NCBI GenBank assembly: GCA_000004985.1
Contig: GG738863.1
Direction: 5' to 3' (one strand)
Origin: Naegleria gruberi
Lineage: Eukaryota
Length of the DNA: 64,000 bases
This document shows, piece after piece, positions 9,384 through 59,158 of the stretch; the stretch's first letter is position 1; each line of letters begins with the position of its first letter. Position numbers and translations under genes: made by a program. The notes below the pieces were generated by a model. It searched no databases, had not been told where the DNA came from, and was given only the letters and a program-made list of their open reading frames with translations.

Positions 9384-11002
9384 TTAATTTCTGAGAGAAA
9401 TCTGAATCTTCATGTTTGAAGAAGGTTGATTCATAGGAAGAGCCTCGTTTACAATAGGGTCAACACTTTCATCATTCAATAATTTAAATCTATACTTGGT
9501 TGCCATACAGCTCAATATCATACAAGATTCCAAAAGGGAAAATTTCTTTCCGATACATTGACGATTACCCATAGAGAAAGGAACCCAAATGAGGTTTTGA
9601 ATAGAATCATCCTTGGTGGTTGGATTGACGAAACGATCTGGAATGAATTCGTTTGGTTTCTCCCAAATGTCTTCTCTCTTGTGAAGAGAATTAAAGAGTG
9701 TATACACTATAGTTCCTTTTGGAATTGTATGATTACCTAAAGTGGTGTCCTTAGAAGCTACTCTACCATTAACAAGAACAGGAGAATCTTTTCTCAGAGT
9801 TTCCATCAGTACACTATTGACATAGCTCAATTGTTCATAATCATCCATGGTAGGATCTCTTCCATTTAACACCTTATTGACTTCTGTACATAGGGTATCT
9901 TGAATATCAGGACGTTTGGAAAGTTCATATAAAACCCATTGTAATAATGTTGATGTTGTCTAAAAAATATTAGATGAATATTATAAAAACCTTGAAAACC
10001 TACGTCATGACCAGCAAAAGCCATTGCCACACTGTTTGATTTTAATTCAGAATCAGAAATGAGCTTTTCAGACATGTTTGCTTCAACCAAACGAGTCAAA
10101 ATGTCACTTGTTTCATCGAGTGTCATTTCTCCAGTCTTTAACTTTTCCCTTCTTTCTCCAATAATTTTATCTAAATGATCACTACAGTGATTGATAGCAT
10201 CAGTAATACCAACAGCCTTTTCAATCATTCTTCCAATAAATCCTGACTTGAAAATTCCCTTAATAATCATCGTTTTCATTGTAAAGGTAGCATGAAGTGC
10301 ATTCTTGAACTTTTTACCTTCATCATTGCCTGAAAAGACACCAAAATCAAGATTAAAACCAGCCTTTCCCAATACTTGGAATGTAATATCGGATAAATCT
10401 TGTTTAGTTAGCAAGCAAGTTCCATTTCCTCCCTCTTGAATCTTGGTATTCCATCTTTCGAATAATTGCTCTACAGATTCAACTGTAACCTTACACATGT
10501 ATCTGAGATTAGTTGGAGAAAATGCAGGACTACACACTTTAAAGTGTTTCTTCCACTCTTCTGTGTGAAGAACAGTCACAATATTCTCACCAAAAACCTT
10601 GGCTATGGTCAAATCAGTCTTATCAAACGAACTAGCCTTGGTAATGAAAATCTCTTTCAATAATTTAGGATCATTGGTGCAGATAACTGAATTGTTAGCA
10701 GTTACAATTCTCATCAGATTACAATTATTCTCCTTGAAAAACTTGACAGCATGTTTCTCAGTCTCAAAGAAGGAAGCAATATAAAAGTATGGAGCCAATA
10801 TTGGAATCTTGAAAGGAGCCTTCTCAAAGAATTGAATCACACCTGGAATGTCCTTCATCTTTGCATAGTTGGAATATAATTTGAACAAACTCTTGAGAAG
10901 ATAGGTAAGGAACATGACCAAAAATGTTGTACCAACGATCATAGTCAGTGAAATTTCATAAGAAAACTTGTCATTGTGTGGATCAACAACACCTTTGTCC
11001 AT
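9384..11002 (-). CDS. Cytochrome P450 monooxygenase, two exons (11002-10004 and 9959-9384; intron 9960-10003, 44 nt, GTAGGT…TTTAG), ~524 aa
   Basis: Heme-binding loop PFSMGNRQCIGKKF (FxxGxRxCxG) and ETLR are present. The I-helix AGHD|TTS is split by the intron. There is an N-terminal membrane anchor. Both exon lengths keep the reading frame. Confidence 0.85.
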
Positions 11003-12053: not shown

Positions 12054-12103
12054 NNNNNNNNNNNNNNNNNNNNNNNNNNNNNNNNNNNNNNNNNNNNNNN
12101 NNN
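12054..12103. other. Assembly gap (50 N) inside or next to the Zn2Cys6 gene
   Basis: Run of n. Confidence 0.99.
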
Positions 12104-14246: not shown

Positions 14247-17200
14247 TTATGGCTTTATTTGATCCTTTGTAGCTTTCCTTGGTTCATTTCTTAATGCCAA
14301 ATCATAAAGTGGTTTGTCTTCCATTTGCTTCCAATCAAAGAGTAAATAGGCGAGAAATTCCAATAATTGTACATTGATTCTAATCATGGCAGATTCATCT
14401 TGTGGTGAAGGATTTTGTTGTTGGGGAATTAATTTCAATTTGGCAAGAATCTTATCTCCTAACTTTCTTTTAAGAATGAGTTTTCTTGTTTTCTCAGGTA
14501 CTTGAGCGATGAGTGGTGTGCAGATTGATGGTTTTTTCAATCTTCTTGAATGGAGACGTTTCATGGTTTGAGTCATGAGTTGATACTTGTGACAATTAAA
14601 AATAACACCATACTTGCTAGAAACAAAGTCATTATGACTCTCACTGATAAATGAAATATCTGTCAATAGGGCACCAAGGAATGGAACGAGCAATTCTGAT
14701 TCTTTTGCTATTGCTTCCTGTCTTAGGCCTTTCACTGTACATTTTTCTGATATGGTTGTTACCATTGAATGTAATTCTTTTCCTAAAAGTTCTTGACATC
14801 TGGCAAGAGTAAATTTGTTACTTCCAAGAGCTGAAGAATTTATGGTACTCGTACAAATCATGGTAGTACTAAAATCATTGACACTAAAACTCAATGCCTT
14901 AATTTGTTCAATCTTTTCCAATATCTGTGAACGCTTTTCTAGAGATGGCTCAGAAAGGCAGGAAACTAGGAGGTAATTACTCAAATTATTGAAAATATTG
15001 CAGAGCTTTTTAAGAACCATGAATCTAGTCTGTGAAGGGTCGTAGTTTTGTGGAGAGCTAGACTTGTATACAAGTGTTCTACTTTCAAATAAGCTGACAT
15101 GTCTGAACAAGTAGTCCATCAGTATAAATTGATGAAAGACAAAATCTTCTACTGTACATAAAGGAGGTGAATTTTCACTTTGAGAAATGAAAATACTTTT
15201 TGATTCCAATGTTGCTGAAACGAATGGGTTATTCTCTGGTGTTGGTAGTTGAGATGAGGTAGTATTACTTGGTTGAATGGAGCGAGAGAGAATTAGATCA
15301 TTCATCATGGAAGAGCACTCAAAATCCAATGAATCTTTGGTCATATCAATAAGCTTGAAGAGTTTGATACATTTTTTGTGAATGACATTATCACCATTTG
15401 AAAAACTACAATGACAAAGAGCATAGGAGGCAAAAGCTTCGACCAATTCAATCATATGGACCTCGCACAACGCACCATTGGTTCTATAAAAATCAAGAGT
15501 GGAATATCTTTTGAATCCAAAATCCTTAATCCAAATAAATAGCACATCCAATAAAACCTCAACTTCAAATAGGTATTGCTTGAAAAAATCATGCCTCACC
15601 TCTGGATTATTTTGAACTTGAGCACGAATGAATGACTTTTCAATATTTGGGAAGCATCTCATCCATAACTTTTCATGATTTTCAGTATCTAATGTAAAGA
15701 CTCTCTCAAATAATTTGTACAAGAGCATTTCTGGAGTGATTTTTGATGCTGCAATATTGGAAATCATTGATTCATAAACACCTTCTGGTGTGTTGATATC
15801 ATTGTAATTCTTTTGCTTGTTATCCTTTTGAAGATTCAGTGAAGCGTTGCACAATTTGCACAACTCATTATATACGAGTGGTTGCTGTGAGACCATGTAG
15901 AAGAATTGAAGATAGAGATTGCAATAAGTGTCGTGTCTTTCCTGAAGTGTACGCTTAAAAATCTCAGAAGGACTTTCAGTGATGGCAATGGCTGAGAAGA
16001 ATAGAGGCGACTCTGACAATATGTCATCAGCATTAGGGGAAGTTATCGATGAGGTATCTGGACTTGCATTTGGAGTCTTGGTGTTAAAGAGAGCCCCTAA
16101 CTTTTTCTTGGTCGAATTGGCCTTCTCTGATGAAGCCACACTACCACGAGGTGTCAGAGAATTGGATCGTTTCTTTCTCAAATCATTCATAATCTTCCAA
16201 TGATCTTGTGCCCAAATATTAATCTTGATTTGTGATTCCCATTCTTGTTTTTCTCTTTCATTCAATGCAAATAATTTTTCATCTTCAGAACTGTTGGCCA
16301 ATTGATTCATTAAATCCTGTCTTACAATTCTCGAATGCATAAGTGAACAAAATTTGTACAAAATTCCACTTGATGCCTCCTCACCTGAAAAATCTCTAGC
16401 AACAAAGTGATGAATGAGTGCTACCTGAGAGAGTGTATTATTAACTTGTAGAGAAGATGCCTTTTTCTGAGAGTTTGGTAAATTTACCATTATGGTTGAC
16501 CTTCTCTCCCTCGATGTCACATGAGCATTCACTTCATCACCTTCCACACCTATTATACAAGTATCATAATCTGCATCAATGAGAATGGTTGCCCATCTTT
16601 TACAGACCCATCTCAAACTACATCGTTGTTCACTTCTCGAAATGAAACTAAATATGAAAGGCATTAAATCGAATTTCTCCCACCATCCAATTGAGGAATG
16701 TTGATTAATGGCTGTCATCTTTTTAGCCTTTCCATTTGATGAACCATGTCCAATATTCGTAATTTGAAATGATTTCTCCCTGAAAAAGTTAATTACATTA
16801 TTCTTGGTTTGAGGAAGACCTTCAGAGAAGGAATTTGAAGAATTGGAATGATCGGAAGTGGTCGATCTTCCAGAGAAGGTTCTTGGAGTTTTAGAATCAG
16901 CACTGGTAGGTGTTGGTGTTGAGTAGCAAGCGTCCATTGTTGTTGTTGATGTTATTGAATTTGGTGAGAGTGCTCTATTTAAATTGGTTGAATTATTTGA
17001 AACTGTTGGTAGAAAAGTTGGAAGTGAGAGTGATGGTAAATCGTCTTCTGAAATTCTAAATTGTTCGGGAAGAGGTTGCAAGTAGTGTAATGATGTCGAG
17101 GTGGAGGACTGTTTAGCAGTGCTGGATGCCTTACCAACTTGAAGTAAATTCATAGAGGCTGCTTCTCTATACAATTGTTTTCCTTCTGTTGTCGTTGCTG

Positions 17201-17876
17201 TTTGATTGTTATTATTACTATTATTGCTATTGTTATTACTACCATTAGTATTATTAGATGGTGTGGGCTGATTATCCACAATGATATTTGGATTATTTAC
17301 TTGGTGATGATGATTGGATTCTTCTCCACTCGATAAAGAATGATGATGAGTGAATCGAGAGGGTGAATTTGCTTCATTATTATTAGTACTATTTGTTGTA
17401 CTCTTGGAACGTATTCGGGGAGAGGAAGCAGCTGAAGATGATGCTCTTCTTCTTCCATTTCCAGTGTTAGGTGATGAAGATGATGAATTTTCATGATAAC
17501 AAGTAGTACCATTAGTAGTATTAGTATTGTTATTATTCATATTAGATTGAAAAGCATGAACATCTCCAACATAGAATGTCGAATTAATCAATTCATCCGG
17601 ATTATTAGAACCACTCGATTCCAAATACGAAGAGGGTGAAGAATTCAATAGGAATTGAATCAGAGTTTGTGGTATCGATCCAACCCTTCTCAACTCTCCA
17701 TCATTATCATTGGATGCAACAACATTACCCGATGTTAGTGGTGATAGAGGTGAAGAGGGCAAAACAGGTGAGCCGACTGAAGAAGCATTTTCTCGTAAGT
17801 TTGTTGGCGGGAGGAATGTAGTGTTGCTTTGTGGACTGTTTGCTAGAGAATTCGTTCTTCTCTTGCTGGTAGACAT
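14247..17876 (-). CDS. Ras guanine-nucleotide exchange factor (CDC25-homology RasGEF domain) with an internal F-box-like motif and a long S/N-rich N-terminal region (~1209 aa), single exon
   Basis: C-terminal …LEKIEQIKALSFSVNDFSTTMICTSTINSSALG… and VPFLGALLTDISFISESH match RasGEF catalytic-domain motifs (NFNSLMAI…ALNSS; IPFLGxYLTDLxFI). F-box-like LMPFIFSFIS…CSLRWVCKRWATIL. The likely ATG is at 17876; the track start at 17915 is a TTG. Confidence 0.75.
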   Translation of the reverse strand: MSTSKRRTNSLANSPQSNTTFLPPTNLRENASSVGSPVLPSSPLSPLTSGNVVASNDNDGELRRVGSIPQTLIQFLLNSSPSSYLESSGSNNPDELINSTFYVGDVHAFQSNMNNNNTNTTNGTTCYHENSSSSSPNTGNGRRRASSSAASSPRIRSKSTTNSTNNNEANSPSRFTHHHSLSSGEESNHHHQVNNPNIIVDNQPTPSNNTNGSNNNSNNSNNNNQTATTTEGKQLYREAASMNLLQVGKASSTAKQSSTSTSLHYLQPLPEQFRISEDDLPSLSLPTFLPTVSNNSTNLNRALSPNSITSTTTMDACYSTPTPTSADSKTPRTFSGRSTTSDHSNSSNSFSEGLPQTKNNVINFFREKSFQITNIGHGSSNGKAKKMTAINQHSSIGWWEKFDLMPFIFSFISRSEQRCSLRWVCKRWATILIDADYDTCIIGVEGDEVNAHVTSRERRSTIMVNLPNSQKKASSLQVNNTLSQVALIHHFVARDFSGEEASSGILYKFCSLMHSRIVRQDLMNQLANSSEDEKLFALNEREKQEWESQIKINIWAQDHWKIMNDLRKKRSNSLTPRGSVASSEKANSTKKKLGALFNTKTPNASPDTSSITSPNADDILSESPLFFSAIAITESPSEIFKRTLQERHDTYCNLYLQFFYMVSQQPLVYNELCKLCNASLNLQKDNKQKNYNDINTPEGVYESMISNIAASKITPEMLLYKLFERVFTLDTENHEKLWMRCFPNIEKSFIRAQVQNNPEVRHDFFKQYLFEVEVLLDVLFIWIKDFGFKRYSTLDFYRTNGALCEVHMIELVEAFASYALCHCSFSNGDNVIHKKCIKLFKLIDMTKDSLDFECSSMMNDLILSRSIQPSNTTSSQLPTPENNPFVSATLESKSIFISQSENSPPLCTVEDFVFHQFILMDYLFRHVSLFESRTLVYKSSSPQNYDPSQTRFMVLKKLCNIFNNLSNYLLVSCLSEPSLEKRSQILEKIEQIKALSFSVNDFSTTMICTSTINSSALGSNKFTLARCQELLGKELHSMVTTISEKCTVKGLRQEAIAKESELLVPFLGALLTDISFISESHNDFVSSKYGVIFNCHKYQLMTQTMKRLHSRRLKKPSICTPLIAQVPEKTRKLILKRKLGDKILAKLKLIPQQQNPSPQDESAMIRINVQLLEFLAYLLFDWKQMEDKPLYDLALRNEPRKATKDQIKP

Positions 17877-18231
17877 TCTTCTAGTTGATATAATAAACGT
17901 GTGTTGGAGAAGCAACCAAACAGACTGAAAGAGATCTGGAGTTGATGATGTTTTTTTGGTGAATGTTGACAGAATTTAAAACTAGACAGGAGGGAACTGC
18001 CCACATCACACCTCTCTTTCCAACAGTTGCTAATGTCTCATCTTTCGTGGGGCGTGTGGCAATAAAAGGATTGCACTTGTGTCAATAACTCTCAGCTTTC
18101 TCTGTTTGGTCAGTAAATGGTATTGATAATGACATTGCTCTGGCAATCTAGATGGAAAGAAGAGCTCTGTTGAGAAATGATAATAAATTAAAATTGTTTA
18201 TGATGAAAGGTTTAAATTAATTGCAAACCAT

Positions 18232-19311: not shown

Positions 19312-20451
19312 TTACACTTTGGAATCATATTGATGAACATCTTGAGAGGTCAGAACAACTTGAGTTGGTTCTGGTGGTTGATAGACAACAACACCAGCCT
19401 CAGCAGAAAAGTAATTGCAAGCAACAGTTGGTTCTTGTGCCACTACTGTTGCAGTATTAGATGATAACGGTTGCATGGTTGGAGAATAGTATTGAACTGT
19501 GCTCATGGTTTGAATCTTTTGTGGTTCAATATAGGCAATAATTGGCACACCTCTTCTCCTTCTGTGAATTATTGATCCAATCACTACACATAGAGCCAAT
19601 AGTAAGCAAATGGCAAAGCTAGCCATCACAATACCAAAGATTGTCCCCAAGTAAGGTGCATCATCTTCCACATTGAACAGATTAATGACCAAACGACACA
19701 ATTCACTCTCCACACATTGAATATGAAGATAGAATGGAACATAGTGTTTCTCATCTAGTTCAGGTACGTCGTTTGGAACATCAATTTCCAACATCTTATA
19801 ATTCAATGAAGAGAGAGTGTAAGGAGTAAACTGAACTTGTTCAGTATTATTAAAGGCGAATCCAACATGAATTGTTTGTGAGCCTCCAATTTGTTGATTA
19901 ACATTTCCGCTCATCAATACTAGATTGTTGTGCTTTCCCTTACGAACTTGTTTTTGACTAAAGAACCTCTGAAATCCATAGGATGGGATGTAAACAGTTC
20001 TTTTTCCAATGTTCAATGTTTCAAATCCAATTGTCATTTCAAAATCAACTGTAAATTCTGTTGGTGCTGTGAATATTAAATAATCTCCTGATGATGAAGT
20101 TCCTGTAATGATAACAACCTTATCTGTCTCTCTTGATGAATATTTAATAATGCCATTGTAGACTACTGATGTGTTTGTATTCGTATCAGAGAAGGGAGAT
20201 GTTCCGACAGATATCGGCAAACTCGAATTAAAAGATAATGTATACATTCCAGCAAAGTACTTGTTAGATGAGGCGATTGCATATTGTGCTCGTACAATAG
20301 TTATAACTGAGGTAAATGGAAGAGATAAAATACAGATCAACACAATGATCATTAGATAGAGTACACTTTGTCGCTGATGCTTAAACAGCTGCGTTGATGA
20401 ATTAATGGTGGACAATCTCTGAAATAAAAACATTATTGATTGATAAGGCAT
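19312..20451 (-). CDS. Hypothetical type-I membrane protein (379 aa): signal/anchor, lumenal domain, one TM (IFGIVMASFAICLLLALCVVIGSII), basic cytoplasmic tail
   Basis: Uninterrupted ORF with an ATG at 20451. Hydrophobicity pattern read by eye. Confidence 0.5.
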   Translation of the reverse strand: MPYQSIMFLFQRLSTINSSTQLFKHQRQSVLYLMIIVLICILSLPFTSVITIVRAQYAIASSNKYFAGMYTLSFNSSLPISVGTSPFSDTNTNTSVVYNGIIKYSSRETDKVVIITGTSSSGDYLIFTAPTEFTVDFEMTIGFETLNIGKRTVYIPSYGFQRFFSQKQVRKGKHNNLVLMSGNVNQQIGGSQTIHVGFAFNNTEQVQFTPYTLSSLNYKMLEIDVPNDVPELDEKHYVPFYLHIQCVESELCRLVINLFNVEDDAPYLGTIFGIVMASFAICLLLALCVVIGSIIHRRRRGVPIIAYIEPQKIQTMSTVQYYSPTMQPLSSNTATVVAQEPTVACNYFSAEAGVVVYQPPEPTQVVLTSQDVHQYDSKV

Positions 20452-20612: not shown

Positions 20613-23600
20613 TTACTTTGAAAAGTAAGGATCTTTGAGGATATCCTTGGCACTTGGTCTTGATGATGAATCTTTGGTGAGCATTTTCAAACAGATGGAA
20701 ATGAGTTCTTCTGAATAATTAGAAGTTTGTTTCATCTTGTCGTGGAGAATTTCACAAACTTGTTTTTCATCCTTTGAGAGGTACATGTGACTGATGGCTG
20801 TTGTGTTATCCTTTGTCATGAGTTGGTAGATTGTTACTCCCAAACTCCAAATATCAGTATTGGAATTATAACTAGCTCCCAATCCAAGTTCAGGACTCAT
20901 GTCTTTAGAAGAATGGTTAAATATCTTACAATGAAATTGAAAAAACTTACAAAGTGGAGTTCCTGCATATGATTGCATAGCTGATGCATGATTGTCCTTT
21001 GCAAGACCAAAATCAGCAAGAATAGTATGAATACTTGTATCATCAATACTCTTAATGAAAATATTGGACAATTTAACATCACGATGGATGGCCTTCAAAT
21101 TGGAGTGAACAAAATCCAAAGCACTACACATTTGATACACTATTTGTTTGACAATGACTTCACCACAGAAAGGAGTTTCAGGTTTGATGAATGCAGATAA
21201 ATCTCCCTTCTCATAAAATTCCATATCCATGCAGAGAATTTCCTGCTTGTCCACAAATAAATCATTCACTTTCAGAATATTTGGATGACTGATATTCATC
21301 AATTGCATTCCTTCTTTCATGATTGCGTTCAACTCTCCAAAGCTTTTAAATTTAATAATTTTCAGAGCTTTGGTCTTGTTTGTTTTGGTGTCAAATGCTT
21401 TTTTTGAAATATTAGAAACTAATCAAATAATAATACAAACCTTTGAAGACACTTCCAAATGCTCCTTGTCCAATCTTGGTTAATTCTTTGTATCTAGAGA
21501 GAGGATCAAATGTTGCTTCACTATTTGTAACAGAAGACATGCTACTGCTGAGAGGTCTGAAAAAGCTGTCATCTGTTGGGAAATCAGAAATTTGATCAAA
21601 AGTGCTGGCATTAGCATCCTTCATTTCAAAGTTTTGACGAGATTTCACAACAGAATTGGTTACAGTTGATCCTTGTTTCTTGAGTTTCATATAAGCAATC
21701 ACAAATGCAACAATTACAACTATCAAAATTGTAATGAACAGCACAACTAACACAGGTACAAGAACTGCAATAAGAACGATTTGTCCATTATTGCTATCCA
21801 CTCTTCCACCACTAGTACTTGTTGAATTCAAAGTTACTGGAGTTGAAATTAAACATTGAGAACCACTCCATGTAGAAGAACATTGACAAGTATCTGGAGC
21901 AATACAGCTTCCTTGAAGTGGGCCACCACATGAACTCGATCCAACAGCTCCATAACAAATTGGTGTACATGTTGTAATGTTCAAAGAATATCCACTATCA
22001 CAATATGGTGTTAGTTTGTAAATATTTCTCCTTTCAGAAACGTAGAGCTCTCCATTTTCTCCATAAATAATACGAGAGGGATCAGCAGAAAGGACTATTG
22101 TTGTTGATAAATTAAAAAATAAAAGAGGAATAACCACTTACATGGCAGTGTAATGTTTGTGAAAGTACCACCAGTTTGGAAACGAGAAACTCCCAAACTT
22201 CCTCCCACAAAAATAGTTCCATCAGAAGCAATGGCTAAACCAGTTTTTTTAACAGTTCCTATTATTTCATTATGTAAGATTAATCTATTATTTGGAAATA
22301 CTAACCGAGGTAATTAATGGAAGTTGAGGTTATAGTTTTGAGATAGTAACTGGTATCGTCCAAGAAATAAATTCGCTTATCAAGAGGTGAAACTGTCATG
22401 GCATTGGCGAAAACTGGTGAATCAAGAGGGACTGATGGAGATGTTTTACTAACACTTTGTGAGCCTCCAGCAACTGTGGTCACCATTCTCGTCGAAAATG
22501 AAATCTTTCTAATCTTTGCAGTGGCCAAATCAAAATAGTACAAATATTCGTTATCAACTGCTATTCTATAACAATTCATAGTAGTATTGAGTGCAGGAAT
22601 ATTTTCTGCAAAGTTGGAACTACTGGACGATCCGGCAAATATTGAAATGGATTTGTTTGAGGGATCAATCATACGGATACTTTGAAAAGAAGAAGAATAA
22701 ATAATGCCATTCTTAATTACAAAGTCTGAAGGAATAAGAGCAATTCGTTCGTAGGAATCAGGATTTTCGGTGGCAATACTATAAGATCCAATTACTCTTT
22801 CTATCTTTCCATCTGTTTTGATTTTGTAAATAATGTTAAAAACTGTAAAATATAATTCAGAATTCCAAAAGTACATGGTATTTCCAAAGGTATCTACTTT
22901 CATCTTGGTGGCTAATGTTTTATCTTGATTAACAATATAATTACCAACATTTCTCAGTGCTGAAAAAGCTGAATCTCCAGCTTTGAAAGTATTAATTTCA
23001 TATTCAAAAGTATTAGCAACAAATATATCAGTTCCATTATCTGAATATCCAATTGCTTGTGGATTTGCGAAATCATTGGCAGAATTAATTAGATTATCTG
23101 ATAGATCTTTTGTTGTGTCATATTGAAAAACGTTAGTACCAAAGGTTACCAGTAAATAGTTATTAAAAGTGGCCACTGCAGTAATTTTGTTGGTTAAAGT
23201 TAAATAAGTACTAGTTGAGTTATCAGCTAATGTGAGCATGATTCTTTTGTTTTCGCTATCTGCAGTGAAAACTCTACCATCGAATGATACTGAAACTGAG
23301 TGAGGATGCCAAAGTTGCTGATTATTTTTACCTGGTCGATTACCAACTCCAATAAGAGTCTCAATAAAACCATTTGAATTGATTCTTCTCATTTTGTTAT
23401 TAAAAGTATCTGCAATATAGACAATATCTGTCATTGTTTGATTATCGTACCAAACACTCACACCAAGAGGGTTGTTCAATTTTGCACTTGTTGCCAAAAT
23501 ATTATCTCCATTATATCCAGGACTTCCTGTTCCAGCAATTGTTGTAATAATATTGGTAATTGGATCAATTCGTCTAATTCTATGATTGTATGTATCAGCA

Positions 23601-24991
23601 ATGTAAATTGCTTTGGTTCCACTTGAAAAAGCAACAGCAGTTGGGTTATTGAATTGAGTATTTGAATCTAAAACAAGGCCATCTCCTGCAAATCCTGCTT
23701 CTCCTTTACCGAATGAATATACTTGTGAATTCTTAATTTGTAATATTGAGTGAGTCAAACTTTGTGTTAAATAGAGTACATTCTGAACTTTTGTTACTCC
23801 ATAAGTTTTGGTCAATCTAATACTGAAAGGATCAGAGTTAAAAGATGGTTCAAAAGGAGATCCACAAAATCTTGAAATTGTACCAGTTTGAGAAAGCAAA
23901 CTAATTCTATCAGCCCTACTCTCGAGAATGTACCACTCTTCAGTGAATGGATTTCTCATAATTGAACGCGGTTCATATAATTGAGCTTGAGTTGCTTGAA
24001 TACTAATATTATCACTGGTGCCACCACCTGCAATTGTAGTTACCATTCCACTCAATGTGTCATATTTTCTAATTCTATTGTTACCAGTATCCGCAATGTA
24101 CAACTCAGTTTCCAATTTGTTCATCCAGAGTTTAGTTGGATTATTCAAAGTGGTTGAAAGTCCACTTGAATCAGAATCAAACCCAATATTTACAGTACCA
24201 ACTAGAGTTACAATAGTTCCGTTTGTCAAAATCTTTCGTATTCTGTTATTTCCGGAATCTGAAACAAAAATTTCACCACTCGATTGTGAAACATAGATTC
24301 CTTGAGGATAACTAAAAGAAGCATTCAAAGCAAGAATTCCATCTCCATAGAATGTATTGTTAGTATTTACATTTCCTGCTATTGTAGTAATAACATTAGT
24401 ATTGGTATCAATCTTTCGAATAACATGATTTCCGCTATCACACACATAAAGACACTCATCAAATGCTGAATAGAAAAGACCTGTAGGATTATTCAATAGA
24501 GCACTCTTTGCCAATGAATTATCTCCTGAGAAACCTGCCGTATCTGATCCAGCCACAAAAATCGAAGGGGAAAGAAAATCGATATTAGTGGCGTAAACAC
24601 CATTTCCAAAAGTATAGTAAATAAAATAGTCATTACCTGCAATTCCTTTGTATTCATAGTTGCCATTATCATTTTGGAAGATGGATATCTTTCCATCTGT
24701 CAATGACACCTTTCGAACAGCACGGCGATAATGGTCAGTGAAATAAAGACTATTCTTCTGCGATGAAAAGAACATATCGTACGGATACGCCAGAGTGGCA
24801 TCAATAGCCTCACCTCCATTTCCAAATTCATCAGAATATCCAGCAAAATTCGAAACTGTATATCTAGCAAACTTTGTTTCCGCACCACCAACCACTTCAA
24901 CAACAACAATGGCAACACACGACAATAACAGTACCAATAAAAGAACTGCACTACGTTGGCCAAAGAAAACCGCCCGGCAGTTGTTGTCCAT
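20613..24991 (-). CDS. Receptor-like protein kinase with an NHL-repeat (six-bladed beta-propeller type) ectodomain, an EGF-like Cys module, one TM and a cytoplasmic Ser/Thr-Tyr kinase domain. Four exons: 24991-22306, 22258-22142, 22094-21441, 21397-20613. Introns 22305-22259, 22141-22095, 21440-21398 (47, 47, 43 nt). ~1413 aa
   Basis: Signal peptide MDNNCRAVFFGQRSAVLLLVLLLSCVAIVVV. Repeated …ADTGNNRIRKY…, …SDSGNNRIRKI…, …ADTYNHRIRRI… NHL motifs. CTPICYGAVGSSSCGGPLQGSCIAPDTCQC. TM LIAVLVPVLVVLFITILIVVIV. Kinase GQGAFGSV|…K, HRDVKLSNIF, DFGLA, and HPNIL after the intron. Junction phases were checked by hand. Confidence 0.8.
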
Positions 24992-25501: not shown

Positions 25502-27382
25502 ATGTCTTTTCGATTGGCAAGAGCATCAGTAAGAATAGCAACAACTGAAATCAATTCCAAGTCATTTACTGTTAGAGACCAAGGAAAACGACTTTCGTCT
25601 TCGGCACAACAACTTTCGGAAAGTTTCCACACCTTTGATAAACCAATTCATTTACTTTCTCCTCTTCATAGATCAAATAGTCATCGATTCGTTCGCTACG
25701 ATTCATTCATTCACAATGAAGAATGCAGAAAAGTTTTCTTAGAGTTTCTTCAAATTTCCAAATGTGAAGAATTAGTTTTGTTTTGGGAAGAATTACATTC
25801 GTATAAGGAATGTTACAAACAATTCTATATGAAACTCAATAACAAACATGGAACTATCTATAGTCGAGGATTTGACCCGAAAAAGAAACAGAAATTGATT
25901 TTTAACTTGGTTGAGAGAGCAACATTTATTGTAAACACATACTTAACACCAAATAGTTTATTAGAATTGAATTTACATTCTAAACATAGAGTTCATGCTC
26001 CAAAAGTGATTGATTCCATTAATAATCGATTAAGAGTTGAGAAGGATGTATTCGAAATGATTAGAGAAACTCAGGAAGAAACTCAAGAATTATTGATAAT
26101 AATTTTGAATGAATTGAATCCAAAATACATTTTTGGGGATGTAGAAGCAACAGTCAACTTGGATTTGAAAGATCAATTGCAATCTCATTTTCTCAAATCA
26201 GAAATTGGCGCCAAATTTGTGAAATCCAAAGGTGAAGAATTTTTTAACAATCTTTCAAAAAGTAGAGAACAAGAACAGGTTGAAGATGAATTTAAGGATT
26301 TGGTCATGTCACTTAGCAGTTTGAAATCCAAGCTTTTTCAGAATCATATGATTTGCGACTCTTTGAAAAAGAATACGAAACTTGTCATGTTTAGTTCGAA
26401 TTATTCCAGTTGTATTTCAGATGATGATATTTACAGTACCATTTTATGGGAAAGAGATGATTCCGAATGGACTTCATTCCATAAGAATTATGATTCTTCT
26501 CACAAGTTTTCGTATAATTTGAGTTTATCCAAATCTTGGACTATTTCACAATCATTTCATTCAGATTTTGTAAATCCAAAACATGATCCAAGTACTTCCT
26601 CATTCAGAGTTGGTAGAGTTGACATGATTATTCCATTCGAAAGGGAGAAAGTCTTTCATGCATTTTCACAACCAGATATTCGAAAGTACATTGAAGAGGC
26701 TTTGGATATTTCCTTACTTGAATCGTATACTCAAGACTCTTTGGATGATTTAGATGATGCATCTGATTGTGTGGTAGTGTCTGGTGATGATTTCTCTGAA
26801 ATTATCGATGTTTCGAATGATAGAAAGCCGAAAGGTTTATTCACATCGAAATGCTCAATGACTGTACAGAATGGAACTTCCATCTTGCAAAGATTCGAAA
26901 AAAAGAAGGTTTACGATATGAATCATACCACTTTATATGATTCAGAGCTAGATTGCATCATTCATGTGTCCAAGTCAATTGTCAAGGATTCAAAATCTGA
27001 TAATCTTGGATTTTCACACTTTTTCTTTTACAGAGATAATGAATCTGGATCTGATTCCACCTACATGGTACATCTATTCAATCTGGAAAAGAAACGTATC
27101 GATTCCAAATTTAAAATGAAACAAACCATCAAGTCACGTGTCAAACGAGTGAAACAAACTTTCCATAATTATTTCTCCAAACATTCTGACGTTTCCGACC
27201 TACTTCGAACCAATGATCCTCTCTACATTGTAAATACCTTACTATTGAACAAATTTTCCAATCCACATCGTTCATGGTATCGAGAATTATTGAAAGAAAC
27301 AAAAAGTATTAATTTTCAAAAAGAATTGAAATCAAATTTTACGTTGAGTTGTGAATCTTTGAAAAATAATACGAGTTTTTAA
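25502..27382 (+). CDS. RGS (regulator of G-protein signalling) domain-containing protein (626 aa)
   Basis: RYDSFIHNEECRKVFLEFLQISKCEELVLFWEEL…FIVNTYLTPNSLLELNL resembles the RGS box. The rest is low-complexity. Single exon. Confidence 0.5.
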   Translation: MSFRLARASVRIATTEINSKSFTVRDQGKRLSSSAQQLSESFHTFDKPIHLLSPLHRSNSHRFVRYDSFIHNEECRKVFLEFLQISKCEELVLFWEELHSYKECYKQFYMKLNNKHGTIYSRGFDPKKKQKLIFNLVERATFIVNTYLTPNSLLELNLHSKHRVHAPKVIDSINNRLRVEKDVFEMIRETQEETQELLIIILNELNPKYIFGDVEATVNLDLKDQLQSHFLKSEIGAKFVKSKGEEFFNNLSKSREQEQVEDEFKDLVMSLSSLKSKLFQNHMICDSLKKNTKLVMFSSNYSSCISDDDIYSTILWERDDSEWTSFHKNYDSSHKFSYNLSLSKSWTISQSFHSDFVNPKHDPSTSSFRVGRVDMIIPFEREKVFHAFSQPDIRKYIEEALDISLLESYTQDSLDDLDDASDCVVVSGDDFSEIIDVSNDRKPKGLFTSKCSMTVQNGTSILQRFEKKKVYDMNHTTLYDSELDCIIHVSKSIVKDSKSDNLGFSHFFFYRDNESGSDSTYMVHLFNLEKKRIDSKFKMKQTIKSRVKRVKQTFHNYFSKHSDVSDLLRTNDPLYIVNTLLLNKFSNPHRSWYRELLKETKSINFQKELKSNFTLSCESLKNNTSF

Positions 27383-27579: not shown

Positions 27580-28795
27580 ATGTCAAAACGCTTGAAAAAA
27601 ATGCGTCCCTATCTCAAGCATTTGTATTCCTCATCACCCAAGAAATCATCTTCAAATAACAAATCAGAAAAGATTAATACACCTTCGAATAGTTTATCCA
27701 TAGTTTCGTCTAAAAAAACTTCGTCACCCAAGAAGGTTGTTATTATTGCTGAATCAGAAACGGAGAAGGAGGAGCACAAATCAAATATCGATAGGGCAAG
27801 TGATCATAAACTCATCAAACCTTCATCATTTAGAATTAAAAAGGGAATTATTCAAGATTCGAATAGAGATGATTTCCTACGAATTCATTTCGACAAGTTT
27901 CGAGAAGGTAAATTAATTTTAATTCTCAATCATTCATTCATCAAATATTGAAACAGTTCAACCTGAAGGAGAAACAAAATCATCCAATGAAACTTTATCC
28001 GAAACTTCCTTAACCAGAACAAAGAGTTCTCCAAATATGGAGAAATCAAAAACTCAACAAAAAACCGAAACAAAACGAAACCACCATCACAATCAACATC
28101 GAAATTCACTTTCCCACCAAAAAACAATTCGTCCGCTCCAACCACAAGATGAAGATAAATTAGATCTTCCATCATGTATAATGAATTCTCTATATTTGGG
28201 AGATTGTTTCCAAGCAACTAATAAGAAATCAATTGACCATTTGAAAATTACACACATTGTTAATTGTACAAAGAATGTTGAAAACAAATTTGAAAGAAAT
28301 CATGAAATTTCAGATCATTCCAAATTGGAACATGTTCAAAGTATTGATTTGGACGTTTCTGAAATTAATTTAGAAGATGAATGTGTTAAAAATATGGAAA
28401 ATGTTAAATTAAAAGATAATAGACAAGTGAAATATTTGAGAATTCCAATTGAAGATGTACATACTGAGGATATTTATCAATATTTTCAAGAGGCACATAA
28501 TTTTATTGAAGAGGCAATGTTTGAATGTGGAATTGTACTTGTACATTGTGCTGCTGGAGTTTCTAGAAGTTCTACTATTGTAATTTCACATGTTATGAAA
28601 AAGATGGGCCTTTCTTTCATGTTTGCTTTCAATATGGTGAAGAGAAGAAGGAGAATGATCATGCCAAATGAAGGATTTTTCAATCAATTATTGGAATGGG
28701 AAAGAAAACTAAATGGTGGTAAATCAATTTCTCAATTTAAAGATGGATACATGGATTTATTGGAAATTGAACAGCAAATGTATAGTTCCTACTAA
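27580..28795 (+). CDS. Dual-specificity protein phosphatase, two exons (27580-27907, 27957-28795; intron 27908-27956, 49 nt), ~388 aa
   Basis: Catalytic loop VHCAAGVSRSSTIV (HCx5R[ST]). S-rich N-terminal exon. GTAAAT…ACAG intron, and the phases close. Confidence 0.8.
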
Positions 28796-51009: not shown

Positions 51010-51261
51010 AGATTTAATTTTTCAAATATGATGACCCATTCATCAGATTTACTATTATCAAGAGTTGACCAACCTGGCCATTCAAAATTTCTATTTCTTC
51101 TAGGAAAGGATGTGGATTGCCTCTTGGATTTGATGAGAAAAAGGTCTTTTTAGATTTTTCAAAGAAAAAGAATCTTCACAACTCATGTTTCCTAATACCA
51201 ACAACATTCAATAATTTATTATCATTTTGCAAAACAGAAATATACTTTAACAGATAATAAT

Positions 51262-52783
51262 ATGGCATTCGGATCGTGCGNNNNNNNNNNNNNNNNNNNN
51301 NNNNNNNNNNNNNNNNNNNNNNNNNNNNNNNNNNNNNNNNNNNNNNNNNNNNNNNNNNNNNNNNNNNNNNNNNNNNNNNNNNNNNNNNNNNNNNNNNNNN
51401 NNNNNNNNNNNNNNNNNNNNNNNNNNNNNNNNNNNNNNNNNNNNNNNNNNNNNNNNNNNNNNNNNNNNNNNNNNNNNNNNNNNNNNNNNNNNNNNNNNNN
51501 NNNNNNNNNNNNNNNNNNNNNNNNNNNNNNNNNNNNNNNNNNNNNNNNNNNNNNNNNNNNNNNNNNNNNNNNNNNNNNNNNNNNNNNNNNNNNNNNNNNN
51601 NNNNNNNNNNNNNNNNNNNNNNNNNNNNNNNNNNNNNNNNNNNNNNNNNNNNNNNNNNNNNNNNNNNNNNNNNNNNNNNNNNNNNNNNNNNNNNNNNNNN
51701 NNNNNNNNNNNNNNNNNNNNNNNNNNNNNNNNNNNNNNNNNNNNNNNNNNNNNNNNNNNNNNNNNNNNNNNNNNNNNNNNNNNNNNNNNNNNNNNNNNNN
51801 NNNNNNNNNNNNNNNNNNNNNNNNNNNNNNNNNNNNNNNNNNNNNNNNNNNNNNNNNNNNNNNNNNNNNNNNNNNNNNNNNNNNNNNNNNNNNNNNNNNN
51901 NNNNNNNNNNNNNNNNNNNNNNNNNNNNNNNNNNNNNNNNNNNNNNNNNNNNNNNNNNNNNNNNNNNNNNNNNNNNNNNNNNNNNNNNNNNNNNNNNNNN
52001 NNNNNNNNNNNNNNNNNNNNNNNNNNNNNNNNNNNNNNNNNNNNNNNNNNNNNNNNNNNNNNNNNNNNNNNNNNNNNNNNNNNNNNNNNNNNNNNNNATT
52101 TATTGTGGAATGATTATTTGAATTCTGTTCAACAATTTCAATTGGAACCCAATAATACTCATCATTATCATCCATTGAAAACATTCAAGGCGAGAGTGAA
52201 GAATTTCTCTGGAGTTTTACTTTCCTCTCCAACAATTTCAATGAGTTTCATATATAATCAGGTATTTTGGATTACACCTTATGGAAAGGGTGATTCGTCC
52301 AATAATTTTGAATATTATAGGGAGAGAATTGAGAGAGCTATTTCAAATTTCAATTTGCATGTGTTAAAGTTTTTGGTTGTGCCTGTTTTACGGATATTCC
52401 CTTCACTTCCATTGTATCCACCATTTGGAATACCGTGTGCTCAACCAAAATGCAGAGAACGTTTCCAAAATGATGCTCTACTTTACAAGGGCTACTGGAA
52501 GAGTTCAACATCTATTTCCATTTTGGAAGAGATGAGGAGTGTGAAAATTTTACTGGCCTCCTTTAATCCTGACCAATCTCAATCCACACAGAACGTACCC
52601 ACACTCATTGTATACGGAGAATCTGATAATTTCTTCTCGTGGGACGAAACTAAACATCTCTTCTCCAAACATTTTCAAAATATAACATGGAAATCATATC
52701 CCAATCTTAAACACGACGTTTTCCATGAGGATGTTAAAGAACCAGTGTGCAGAGATTTATACAACCTTGTTGTAAGAAACTGA
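51262..52783 (+). CDS. Alpha/beta-hydrolase (MGLL/lysophospholipase-like) gene interrupted by an 817-N gap; only the C-terminal ~225 aa (52098-52783) and a possible start (51262 MAFGSC) are visible
   Basis: C-terminal PTLIVYGESDNFFSWDETKHLF…NLKHDVFHE (Asp/His region of hydrolase_4). The frame across the gap is unknown. Confidence 0.45.
51281..52097. other. Assembly gap (817 N)
   Basis: Run of n. Confidence 0.99.
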
Positions 52784-57450: not shown

Positions 57451-59158
57451 ATGATTAAAACACTTTCATTCATACTACTAGTGTTATTATCACTCTATTC
57501 TATTATATCTTTCATTAGAGCTCAAGAAAGATTCATTAATGTCAAGTATTCAATTAAAACTTTGATTGGAACTGGTGCTGGAATATTTAACTTGGATGGG
57601 TTGACTGGATTGGCTACTAATATTAATTCACCTATTGGCGTGTTTTATGAAGAGAGTAGTGGTGATTTGAATTTCTCACATACATGTAAGTTTCATACTT
57701 TCGAATAATAATTTTCATGTTATTCGAAACAACAGTAAACAATACAGTAAGAGTTTTGAGAAACTCATCNNNNNNNNNNNNNNNNNNNNNNNNNNNNNNN
57801 NNNNNNNNNNNNNNNNNNNNNNNNNNNNNNNNNNNNNNNNNNNNNNNNNNNNNNNNNNNNNNNNNNNNNNNNNNNNNNNNNNNNNNNNNNNNNNNNNNNN
57901 NNNNNNNNNNNNNNNNNNNNNNNNNNNNNNNNNNNNNNNNNNNNNNNNNNNNNNNNNNNNNNNNNNNNNNNNNNNNNNNNNNNNNNNNNNNNNNNNNNNN
58001 NNNNNNNNNNNNNNNNNNNNNNNNNNNNNNNNNNNNNNNNNNNNNNNNNNNNNNNNNNNNNNNNNNNNNNNNNNNNNNNNNNNNNNNNNNNNNNNNNNNN
58101 NNNNNNNNNNNNNNNNNNNNNNNNNNNNNNNNNNNNNNNNNNNNNNNNNNNNNNNNNNNNNNNNNNNNNNNNNNNNNNNNNNNNNNNNNNNNNNNNNNNN
58201 NNNNNNNNNNNNNNNNNNNNNNNNNNNNNNNNNNNNNNNNNNNNNNNNNNNNNNNNNNNNNNNNNNNNNNNNNNNNNNNNNNNNNNNNNNNNNNNNNNNN
58301 NNNNNNNNNNNNNNNNNNNNNNNNNNNNNNNNNNNNNNNNNNNNNNNNNNNNNNNNNNNNNNNNATTCGAAAGTTTGTGGAACTAATGGAAAATGTCTGA
58401 CAATTGACAAGTGTGTTTGTAAAGATGGATTTTATGGTCTTGATTGTTCACTTCCTATTTGTTTGAAAGCAGAAAATGGAAAGTGTGCTAATGATACAAC
58501 AGGTGTAACTGTAGAAAATATTGAAACAAGTCAATTGTCAAACAAATCAATTTCTCTTAGTTCAGGAAATTTGACAGAAAGTTCAGTAGTTTCAGTTTCC
58601 TTTCCTTCTGATTTTTCTCATTATATTTCCAATCAAACAACCTTCTCATCAGTTTCTCTACTCACAGCGGTTTCTACAAGCGGAAACAATTTGACAAACT
58701 CAAATTCTGCTTTCTCCATAGTTTCGAATATAATCACAATTTCACTTGCCTTAACAAATGGAAAAAAGATTCCAGTTTCTAATTTGGAAAATCCTATACA
58801 AATCTCATTCCAAAAACCAACAAGTTATTCTGGAAATTTGACATGCATGTACTTGGACGAATTGACCAATGAATGGAAATCAGATGGTGTGAAAACTGTT
58901 ATTGAACCATTAACAGTCAATTGTCTGACTTCTCATTTAACTTCCTTCTCGGTAATTGATATTAATCTCAGGAAGGAAATTGGAAAACCAAAAGAATCAC
59001 CGAGTGTCAGTAATCAAACAATTTCACAAAGTCAACTCTCTCAAGAAGCTATCATTGCAATCTCAGTATCAATTGCTGGAAGCTTCATTGTTTGTTGTGT
59101 TGTTGCAATAATCCTGTCAGCTGTTATCTGCTTAATAAGAAGAAAATCGAAGAAGTAA
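57451..59158 (+). CDS. Single-pass membrane protein with a signal peptide, NHL-type repeats, an EGF-like module, an S/T-rich stalk, a GPS (GAIN-type autoproteolysis) motif and a TM + RRKSKK tail. Exon 1 57451-57685, intron 57686-57735 (50 nt), exon 2 from 57736, interrupted by a 595-N gap, resuming 58365-59158
   Basis: [24 protein letters not shown]. After the intron, LNNTVRVLRNSS is an NHL motif like the GNNRIRKI of the kinase ectodomain. CGTNGKCLTIDKCVCKDGFYGLDCSLPIC is EGF-like. GNLTCMYLDELTNEWKSDGVKTV…TVNCLTSHLTSFSVI matches the GPS consensus (W…G…C.C.HLT.F.V). TM IIAISVSIAGSFIVCCVVAIILSAVICLI. Confidence 0.65.
57770..58364. other. Assembly gap (595 N) inside the NHL-EGF-GPS gene
   Basis: Run of n. 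Confidence 0.99.

Follow-up and report, generated by a model that had tools for sequence, protein, structure and literature searches.

Does a single gene of Naegleria gruberi join an NHL-type beta-propeller outside the cell to a protein kinase inside it? The question is raised by a coding region at positions 20613-24991, on the minus strand of a 64,000-nucleotide stretch of contig GG738863.1 (NCBI GenBank assembly GCA_000004985.1), the whole of which we refer to as the window. The original prediction, made from the sequence alone, had read there one gene of about 1413 residues, split by three introns and coding for a signal peptide, about 890 residues of NHL-type repeats, a cysteine-rich EGF-like module, one transmembrane segment and an intact kinase domain. 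In the present study we propose that the region likely encodes, in five exons, a type I receptor-like serine/threonine kinase whose propeller ectodomain would drive kinase activation upon binding of a ligand. The gene is real, and its protein is already present in GenBank with exactly the model that we obtained.

Results

Gene structure and splicing

The coding region extends from an ATG at 24991 to a TAA at 20613-20615, which are exactly the gene ends given by the original prediction, and its five exons code for 1397 residues. The coding sequence has a GC content of 0.35 in a window that is AT-rich (about 0.30-0.37). In the list of open reading frames (ORFs) the gene appears as three minus-strand ORFs in series, at 22301-24991 (896 residues), 21412-22137 and 20613-21332, with short GT..AG segments between them. 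There are four introns in total, and every one is of the GT..AG type and of phase 1. Exon 1 (22306-24991) encodes residues 1-895 plus one nucleotide and is followed by intron 1 (22259-22305; 47 nt, GTTAGT..AG, GC 0.19), exon 2 (22142-22258) and intron 2 (22095-22141; 47 nt, GTAAGT..AG, GC 0.23). Exon 3 (21441-22094) is separated by intron 3 (21398-21440; 43 nt, GTTTGT..AG, GC 0.16) from exon 4 (20951-21397), which holds kinase subdomains II-VIII as far as GTPL. Exon 5 (20613-20902) contains subdomains VIII-XI and the stop codon.

The coordinates predicted for the first three introns, described as 43-47 nt long, were right, as were their phases of 1, 1 and 1, and splicing these three does give a frame of 1413 residues without internal stop. 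What had been overlooked is intron 4 (20903-20950; 48 nt, GTAAGT...CTAAAG, GC 0.23). Its length is a multiple of three and it lacks an in-frame stop, so that the reading frame stays open when the intron is kept. If kept, it adds 16 residues (CKFFQFHCKIFNHSSK) to the P+1 loop of the kinase, between GTPL and MSPE; if removed, the subdomain VIII motif GTPLYMSPE, in which it splits the codon of Tyr1302, is restored. The 16-residue insert is present in none of ten aligned relatives, and the coding sequence of L001, a homologue from an ENA metagenome contig, is interrupted at the corresponding codon and in the same phase by a 47-nt GTAAGT..CAG intron with a stop inside. Furthermore, the four-intron product matches the NCBI/UniRef protein P0001, named 'serine/threonine protein kinase [Naegleria gruberi]', with 100% identity and 100% coverage. 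The three-intron model is rejected in view of the ten relatives, the L001 intron and the NCBI model, and the product of about 1413 residues is corrected to 1397. A pseudogene was likewise rejected, as the reading frame is open and no catalytic motif is damaged.

The joining of an NHL propeller ectodomain, a transmembrane segment and a C-terminal kinase in one gene, as originally predicted, is supported in several ways at the sequence level. Exon 3 holds, in one reading frame, the end of the ectodomain, the EGF-like module, the transmembrane segment, the juxtamembrane region and the kinase G-loop. The homologue L001 contains an uninterrupted ORF of 687 codons that spans the C-terminal part of an ectodomain, weakly NHL-like and under the Pfam thresholds, together with an EGF module, a transmembrane segment and the kinase. 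The same domain order is found in at least 14 paralogues and orthologues from three Naegleria species, and the deposited model P0001 joins propeller and kinase likewise.

Four N. gruberi database models of the same kinase clade (P0121, P0124, P0126 and P0127; 217-290 residues) comprise a kinase only and are probably truncated. For P0124 and P0126 this is suggested by their start, MIISSS, because the same residues lie inside the contiguous ectodomain-transmembrane-kinase ORF of P0128 and L001.

Topology and EGF-like module

Topology was predicted by a Kyte-Doolittle hydropathy scan of the 1397-residue protein, in which only two hydrophobic segments were detected. The first, residues 14-36 (24884-24952), is the hydrophobic core of a predicted signal peptide or signal anchor, and the second, residues 1040-1070 (21688-21780), is a predicted single transmembrane helix directly followed by KLKK; both had been anticipated by the original prediction. 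Two hydrophobic segments, with basic residues after the second, fit a type I arrangement in which about 1000 residues would lie outside the cell and about 325 inside. The protein is thus predicted to have the architecture of a type I single-pass receptor kinase. The juxtamembrane segment, residues 1071-1135 (21493-21687), contains the motifs DFP(S/T)..S and (F/D)PxSRY, which are conserved by alignment in the kinase clade described below.

A six-cysteine module is localised close to the membrane at residues 981-1015 (21853-21957). Its cysteines, at 981, 990, 998, 1004, 1006 and 1015, have an EGF-like spacing, in agreement with the Cys-rich module predicted earlier. The assignment does not extend to the Pfam models, since all EGF-type matches around residues 986-1016 are under the cut-off (EGF_PEAR1L, 14.2 bits against 37.5; EGF_DL_JAG, 14 against 27; DUF7949, 21.1 against 27). 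Several paralogues, such as P0002, P0125, P0128 and P0241, exceed the EGF_2 cut-off at the equivalent position.

The propeller ectodomain

The presence of NHL repeats, on which the original prediction depended, was confirmed with Pfam at the curated cut-offs: the NHL model (PF01436) reaches 85.9 bits against a cut-off of 20 (E=8.7e-25) in four stretches, and the Teneurin-NHL model (TEN_NHL, PF25021) reaches 99.5 bits against 27.1 (E=2.6e-28) in three. A blade hidden Markov model (HMM) was built from the regular 56-residue repeats of Naegleria paralogues. It detects about 8 NHL-like blades in the protein, all of them inside residues 57-581, and only marginal matches in residues 600-985; in the paralogues P0002 and P0008 it finds about 16 and 12 blades, respectively. 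Thus, the repeats exist, yet the claim that they fill about 890 residues holds by sequence for the N-terminal part only, while blades are still predicted by AlphaFold in the remainder.

The structure prediction proposed as a check on the original reading gave a clear result for the N-terminal third. Residues 38-400, modelled alone with AlphaFold, fold into 24 strands that form six four-stranded blades, with a predicted local distance difference test (pLDDT) score of 83.5 and a predicted template modelling (pTM) score of 0.84. Foldseek searches with this model matched NHLRC2 with template modelling scores over the query (TMq) of 0.73-0.76, and the NHL domain of SOQ1 with TMq 0.76-0.77 and a score over the target (TMt) of 0.79; teneurins followed with TMq 0.65-0.71, and the sensor domain of PknD (1rwi) was matched with TMt 0.80. 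Propeller 1 (about residues 70-377, 23861-24784) is therefore well supported, because the model is confident and scores of 0.73-0.79 were obtained against solved NHL propellers; the NHL and TEN_NHL matches of Pfam add to this evidence.

The remaining ectodomain was explored in a model of residues 30-1039, calculated from a 32-row alignment. This model is all-beta and shows about 15 confident four-strand groups plus 3 blade-sized stretches of low confidence, that is, about 18 blade-sized units, the number needed by three six-bladed rings. Its best Foldseek matches were a teneurin-like protein, the NHL propellers of SOQ1 and NHLRC2, and LRP-type propeller-EGF arrays. A putative second propeller would occupy about residues 399-680 (22952-23797), for which this model, the blade HMM and Pfam provide the evidence, its blades at about 428-581 being NHL-like by sequence. 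A putative third one, degenerate in sequence, would occupy about residues 700-980 (21958-22894, across introns 1 and 2), where four-stranded blades are modelled with pLDDT mostly of 70-90. From these models we infer that the ectodomain may consist of three tandem six-bladed propellers, the last of which would have diverged beyond recognition by sequence.

The kinase domain

The serine/threonine protein kinase domain comprises residues 1136-1395 (20622-21492, across introns 3 and 4) and was delimited by Pfam and by the positions of its motifs. The Pkinase model (PF00069) scores 185.3 bits against a cut-off of 31.7 (E=1.8e-54) and is aligned over profile positions 1-263 of 263. The three motifs named in the original prediction are all present, GQGAFG at 1143-1148, HRDVKLSN at 1257-1264 (HRD at 1257-1259) and DFG at 1281-1283, together with Lys1165 (in ALK), Glu1181, Ser1295 and SPE at 1304-1306; the P+1 loop is intact only if intron 4 is removed. 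With every catalytic motif in place the kinase looks functional and is predicted to be active, and its HRDxKxxN signature is of the Ser/Thr type. Ser1295 lies three residues ahead of the glycine of GTP and is a serine in all aligned members of the clade; it occupies what we take to be the position of the activating threonine in MST and NEK kinases. These features suggest an RD kinase governed by phosphorylation of its activation loop.

A search of the PDB by sequence returned MST3/STK24 (E=1.6e-28), NEK1, NEK2, MST4 and STK25 as the closest solved kinases. Database kinases from outside Naegleria are only 27-35% identical and are mostly named STK24/25/26, NEK or PAK.

A receptor-kinase family in Naegleria and Willaertia

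The juxtamembrane region and kinase were used as the query of an exhaustive phmmer search against 1.84 billion representative proteins, and the members retrieved were then scanned with Pfam and their source names read. The search returned kinases of 38-59% identity located at the C-terminus of long proteins. The protein of the window has all the features by which we delimit this clade, namely a C-terminal kinase of at least 38% identity, the conserved juxtamembrane motifs and a long transmembrane protein to carry them. The species represented are N. gruberi, N. fowleri, N. lovaniensis and Willaertia magna. On the sequences compared the clade is restricted to Naegleria and Willaertia, and the kinases most closely related to it from elsewhere are of the STE20/MST and NEK types.

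The members differ in what precedes the kinase. An NHL ectodomain, with or without a teneurin-type EGF, is found in at least nine proteins of N. gruberi (P0001, P0002, P0008, P0243, P0248, P0252, with 2807 residues, P0253, P0389 and P0398), which answers the earlier suggestion to survey the genome for paralogues, as well as in P0386 and P0390 of N. fowleri and P0245, P0246 and P0397 of N. lovaniensis. An RCC1-repeat propeller takes its place in P0266 (N. gruberi), P0267 (N. lovaniensis) and P0264 (a metagenome), two of the three having an EGF too; these members score 297-350 bits with WD40_RLD, with the repeats N-terminal to the kinase. P0401 of N. fowleri, named 'GPS domain-containing' at the source, has an EGF-rich ectodomain, and several further Naegleria proteins as well as P0259 of Willaertia magna have the kinase without any recognised ectodomain. 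The source names of all members are predicted, hypothetical, uncharacterised or generic protein kinase. RCC1 repeats are usually cytoplasmic or nuclear, and would be extracellular in P0266, P0267 and P0264 if their topology matches that of the protein studied here.

The N. fowleri protein P0390 can be aligned with ours from end to end, with 31% identity overall and about 60% in the kinase. Between paralogues and orthologues the ectodomains are 24-31% identical and the kinases 55-60%; the ectodomains thus diverge much faster than the kinases, a pattern that suits diversified ligand recognition.

Related ectodomains were also found on proteins of other kinds. P0033 and P0087 are Naegleria proteins with NHL, EGF and a transmembrane segment but without kinase, and the related P0043 has a GPS-like motif. 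In P0109 (N. gruberi, 2103 residues) an NHL ectodomain about 29% identical to that of our protein is followed by a GPS motif, a multi-pass (seven-transmembrane) region and a C-terminal RGS domain, so that this protein resembles an adhesion G-protein-coupled receptor with a built-in RGS. Since it is found on kinase, kinase-less and GPS-seven-transmembrane-RGS proteins, the NHL ectodomain is a reusable module in Naegleria. On another ENA metagenome contig (L002, protein P0125) an EGF, a GPS-like Cys/Trp motif (CKYLD..W..G....LTCLTTHLTSF) and a transmembrane segment precede a kinase of the same clade. This motif was recognised visually and is similar to the ones in P0043 and P0109; the Pfam GPS model is silent on it at E<=0.001.

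In the open-access text accessible to our search, which combined Naegleria with NHL repeat, receptor kinase, teneurin and kinome, no paper describing the Naegleria/Willaertia receptor-kinase family was found. One article mentioning both Naegleria and teneurin (PMC3482391) does not concern this family.

Surroundings of the gene

Directly downstream of the kinase gene, on the same strand, lies an ORF of 379 residues (19312-20451) with no Pfam match. By eye it has a hydrophobic N-terminal segment and another near residue 280 (GIVMASFAICLLLALCVVIGSII, then HRRRR), which gives it the look of a further membrane protein of type I. Several neighbouring ORFs have signalling or enzymatic matches: a RasGEF (14247-17915, minus strand; E=7e-17), an RGS-domain protein (25502-27382, plus strand; E=5e-7), a dual-specificity phosphatase (28037-28795, plus strand; E=6e-36) and a cytochrome P450 fragment (9866-11002, minus strand). 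The window provides no evidence that the neighbouring signalling ORFs are functionally linked to the kinase gene.

Two (CCCAAA)n arrays, each of about 60 units with 98% matches, are located at 3-360 and 2451-2826, with a gap of N between them at 1129-2450. The first lies right where the window begins, its C-rich strand in the 5' to 3' direction, and looks like a telomere at the scaffold end. The second, past the gap, could reflect the joining of two chromosome-end contigs during scaffolding, or a subtelomeric duplication. Further assembly gaps are found at 12054-12103, 51281-52097 and 57770-58364. The runs of N account for low-GC windows in the profile, and they explain why ORFs that are not genuine overlap on the two strands at 1012-2880, 51222-52184 and 57715-58410.

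Discussion

Proposed mechanism

The likely reading, as set out above, is that of a type I receptor-like kinase activated through its propeller ectodomain, which would act as the sensor. We propose that the propellers bind an extracellular macromolecule, with the EGF-like module serving as a stalk beside the membrane. Binding would bring receptors together or re-orient them, leading to trans-autophosphorylation of the RD-type kinase on its activation loop, where Ser1295 is a candidate site. The active kinase would then phosphorylate cytoplasmic targets.

Four observations weigh against this proposal. With about 20 residues, the hydrophobic core at the N-terminus is long enough that it may instead be an anchor that stays uncleaved. 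The ectodomain shows no enrichment of N-glycosylation sequons, with 1.2 per 100 residues as compared with 1.5 in the cytoplasmic part. The whole-ectodomain model has a mean pLDDT of 68 and a pTM of 0.44, and the closure of propellers 2 and 3 into rings is putative. Finally, HRDVKLSN has a leucine where every aligned relative has a proline.

Alternative explanations

The alternative that survives best, and that we nevertheless regard as rather unlikely, is a teneurin-type adhesion or recognition molecule, whose NHL propellers, instead of detecting a soluble ligand, would establish homophilic or heterophilic contact with other cells, prey or substrate, and whose kinase would report that contact. 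It differs from a ligand-activated receptor kinase solely in the kind of ligand. A 'teneurin-like protein' (9ifo, E=1.3e-44) ranks first by sequence among the solved structures, the Pfam matches of the protein and its relatives go to teneurin NHL and teneurin EGF models, and the NHL ectodomain recurs without a kinase in P0033 and P0087 and on the receptor P0109. However, the poor conservation of the ectodomain is easier to reconcile with diversified ligands than with a conserved interface for homophilic contact.

A very improbable possibility is that the ectodomain is enzymatic, being a surface-tethered, six-bladed SGL-, Vgb- or PAL-type lactonase, arylesterase or lyase, with a kinase unrelated to sensing. 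Weak Pfam matches to SGL (25.4 bits), Arylesterase (24.4) and Vgb_lyase (22.5) point in this direction, and many bacterial homologues are named 'sugar lactone lactonase YvrE' at the source. Yet SGL and Vgb_lyase remain below their cut-offs of 26.3 and 50, and Arylesterase, with 24.4 against 21.3 for the whole protein, has no stretch that passes alone, the best one covering 30 residues. Such cross-matches are expected, because these families share the blade fold with NHL, and the best structural matches are non-enzymatic NHL propellers. An enzymatic ectodomain was thus rejected, its Pfam support being either sub-threshold or a 30-residue fragment.

We give still less credit to the idea that an NHL receptor kinase resembling PknD was recently acquired from bacteria by horizontal transfer. 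The top matches of the ectodomain, at about 24-37% identity, are mostly unnamed metagenome proteins, the few with a taxon label being bacterial, and a PknD-like metagenome protein with NHL and Pkinase (P0107) is among them. In both PknD and P0107, however, the kinase is N-terminal and the NHL propeller C-terminal, which is the reverse of the order found here. Moreover, the kinase is closest to eukaryotic STE20/NEK kinases and to a Naegleria-specific clade, and the gene has four spliceosomal introns and a base composition like that of its surroundings. That the NHL module by itself came from bacteria at some earlier time would still be compatible with these data.

Least credible of all is that two adjacent genes, one for the propeller and one for the kinase, were misjoined both by hand splicing and by the automatic model: three of the four introns do fall between the large propeller ORF and the kinase end, and several N. 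gruberi models are kinase-only, but exon 3 and the L001 ORF run without a break from ectodomain to kinase, at least 14 full-length relatives have an identical domain order, and the kinase-only models apparently begin at an internal methionine.

Origin and significance

The receptor was most likely assembled within the Naegleria/Willaertia lineage, by joining a kinase of cytoplasmic type to modular ectodomains, because the clade comprises sequences from these two genera only and its nearest kinases outside them are of the STE20/MST and NEK types. More broadly, Heterolobosea (Naegleria, Willaertia) may have invented a receptor serine/threonine kinase family of their own, independently of those of animals, plants and Entamoeba, by placing a STE20/NEK-like kinase behind interchangeable NHL or RCC1 propellers and EGF stalks; with the related NHL ectodomain on the GPS-seven-transmembrane-RGS receptor, this would amount to a lineage-specific surface recognition system. 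We advance this broader idea tentatively, as one that falls somewhat short of likely. If true, the system could recognise, for example, prey bacteria, kin or, in N. fowleri, host tissue.

The original prediction had contrasted the NHL propeller as extracellular sensor of a eukaryotic receptor kinase with its better-known occurrence in cytoplasmic TRIM-NHL proteins and bacterial surface proteins. The novelty was thereby overstated, because teneurins have an extracellular NHL propeller next to EGF, PknD is a receptor kinase with an NHL sensor, and the protein itself is already in GenBank. What looks new is that a eukaryote combines an array of NHL-type propellers with a STE20/NEK-like kinase, and that this combination has expanded into a family confined to Naegleria and Willaertia. 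In most discussions receptor kinases figure as animal inventions (tyrosine kinases, TGF-beta receptors) or plant inventions (receptor-like kinases of the RLK/Pelle family), with few cases in protists. The present family would add one from Discoba with a different type of kinase, STE20/NEK-like, and with propeller ectodomains. Its members in the brain-eating pathogen N. fowleri would be candidates for the sensing of prey, surfaces or host tissue. The value of the finding is limited by the prior deposition of the same gene model and by the fact that the domains are found by standard HMMs.

Comparison with known systems

TRIM-NHL proteins (Brat, TRIM71, Thin) share with our protein the six-bladed NHL fold, as illustrated by Drosophila melanogaster Thin (6d69, TMt 0.77). 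They are, in contrast, cytoplasmic E3 ligases that bind RNA or protein and have neither transmembrane segment nor kinase.

The receptor-like kinases of plants (RLK/Pelle) and the transmembrane kinases of Entamoeba provide a parallel at the level of the family, as both are lineage-specific expansions of type I receptor serine/threonine kinases with interchangeable ectodomains. These kinases belong to the TKL/IRAK-like group, whereas the nearest solved and database relatives of ours are MST/STE20 and NEK kinases. From this difference we infer that the Naegleria receptors may have originated independently of them.

A similar arrangement of the ectodomain is known in animals, where some type I receptors bind their ligands through one or several beta-propellers that alternate with EGF modules or precede them. 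LRP4/5/6, with arrays of YWTD propellers and EGF modules, are type I proteins, and such LRP arrays ranked high when the whole-ectodomain model was compared with solved structures. Sevenless/ROS1 (YWTD propellers) and MET (Sema propeller) are type I receptor kinases with propeller ectodomains and belong to the tyrosine kinase group. All of these propellers are of the YWTD or Sema type, whereas those of the Naegleria protein are NHL-type, and its Ser/Thr-type HRDxKxxN kinase, nearest to STE20/NEK, sets it apart from ROS1 and MET.

Teneurins and bacterial teneurin-like proteins (9ifo, 6ske, 8fia) come closer in the ectodomain, since on a single-pass membrane protein they carry an extracellular NHL propeller and EGF repeats, to which the propeller and the EGF-like module of our protein would correspond; the best Pfam models for our protein and its relatives are TEN_NHL, EGF_TEN and EGF_Teneurin, and the best PDB match by sequence is of this kind. 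Teneurins, however, have a type II topology, a YD-shell, an FN-plug and a C-terminus that resembles a toxin, and they lack a kinase. The Pfam scan of our protein reported no YD or Tox model or other such teneurin domains, and its predicted topology is type I, so that we do not count it among the teneurins.

The closest functional parallel is PknD of Mycobacterium tuberculosis, a receptor serine/threonine kinase with an NHL propeller as sensor, whose ligand is not known (PMC1847690). Both are single-pass membrane serine/threonine kinases with an extracytoplasmic six-bladed NHL propeller, and propeller 1 is the part that matches the 1rwi structure. The differences lie in the build: PknD has its cytoplasmic kinase at the N-terminus and its propeller at the C-terminus, and this propeller is one compact, highly symmetric unit without EGF module, whereas the Naegleria protein has the reverse order and probably about three larger, divergent propellers. 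The kinases differ as well, that of PknD being of the bacterial Hanks type and ours of the STE20/NEK-like eukaryotic clade. By analogy, the Naegleria receptor may work like PknD without being a member of the PknD family, and would thus represent a eukaryotic counterpart to this bacterial design.

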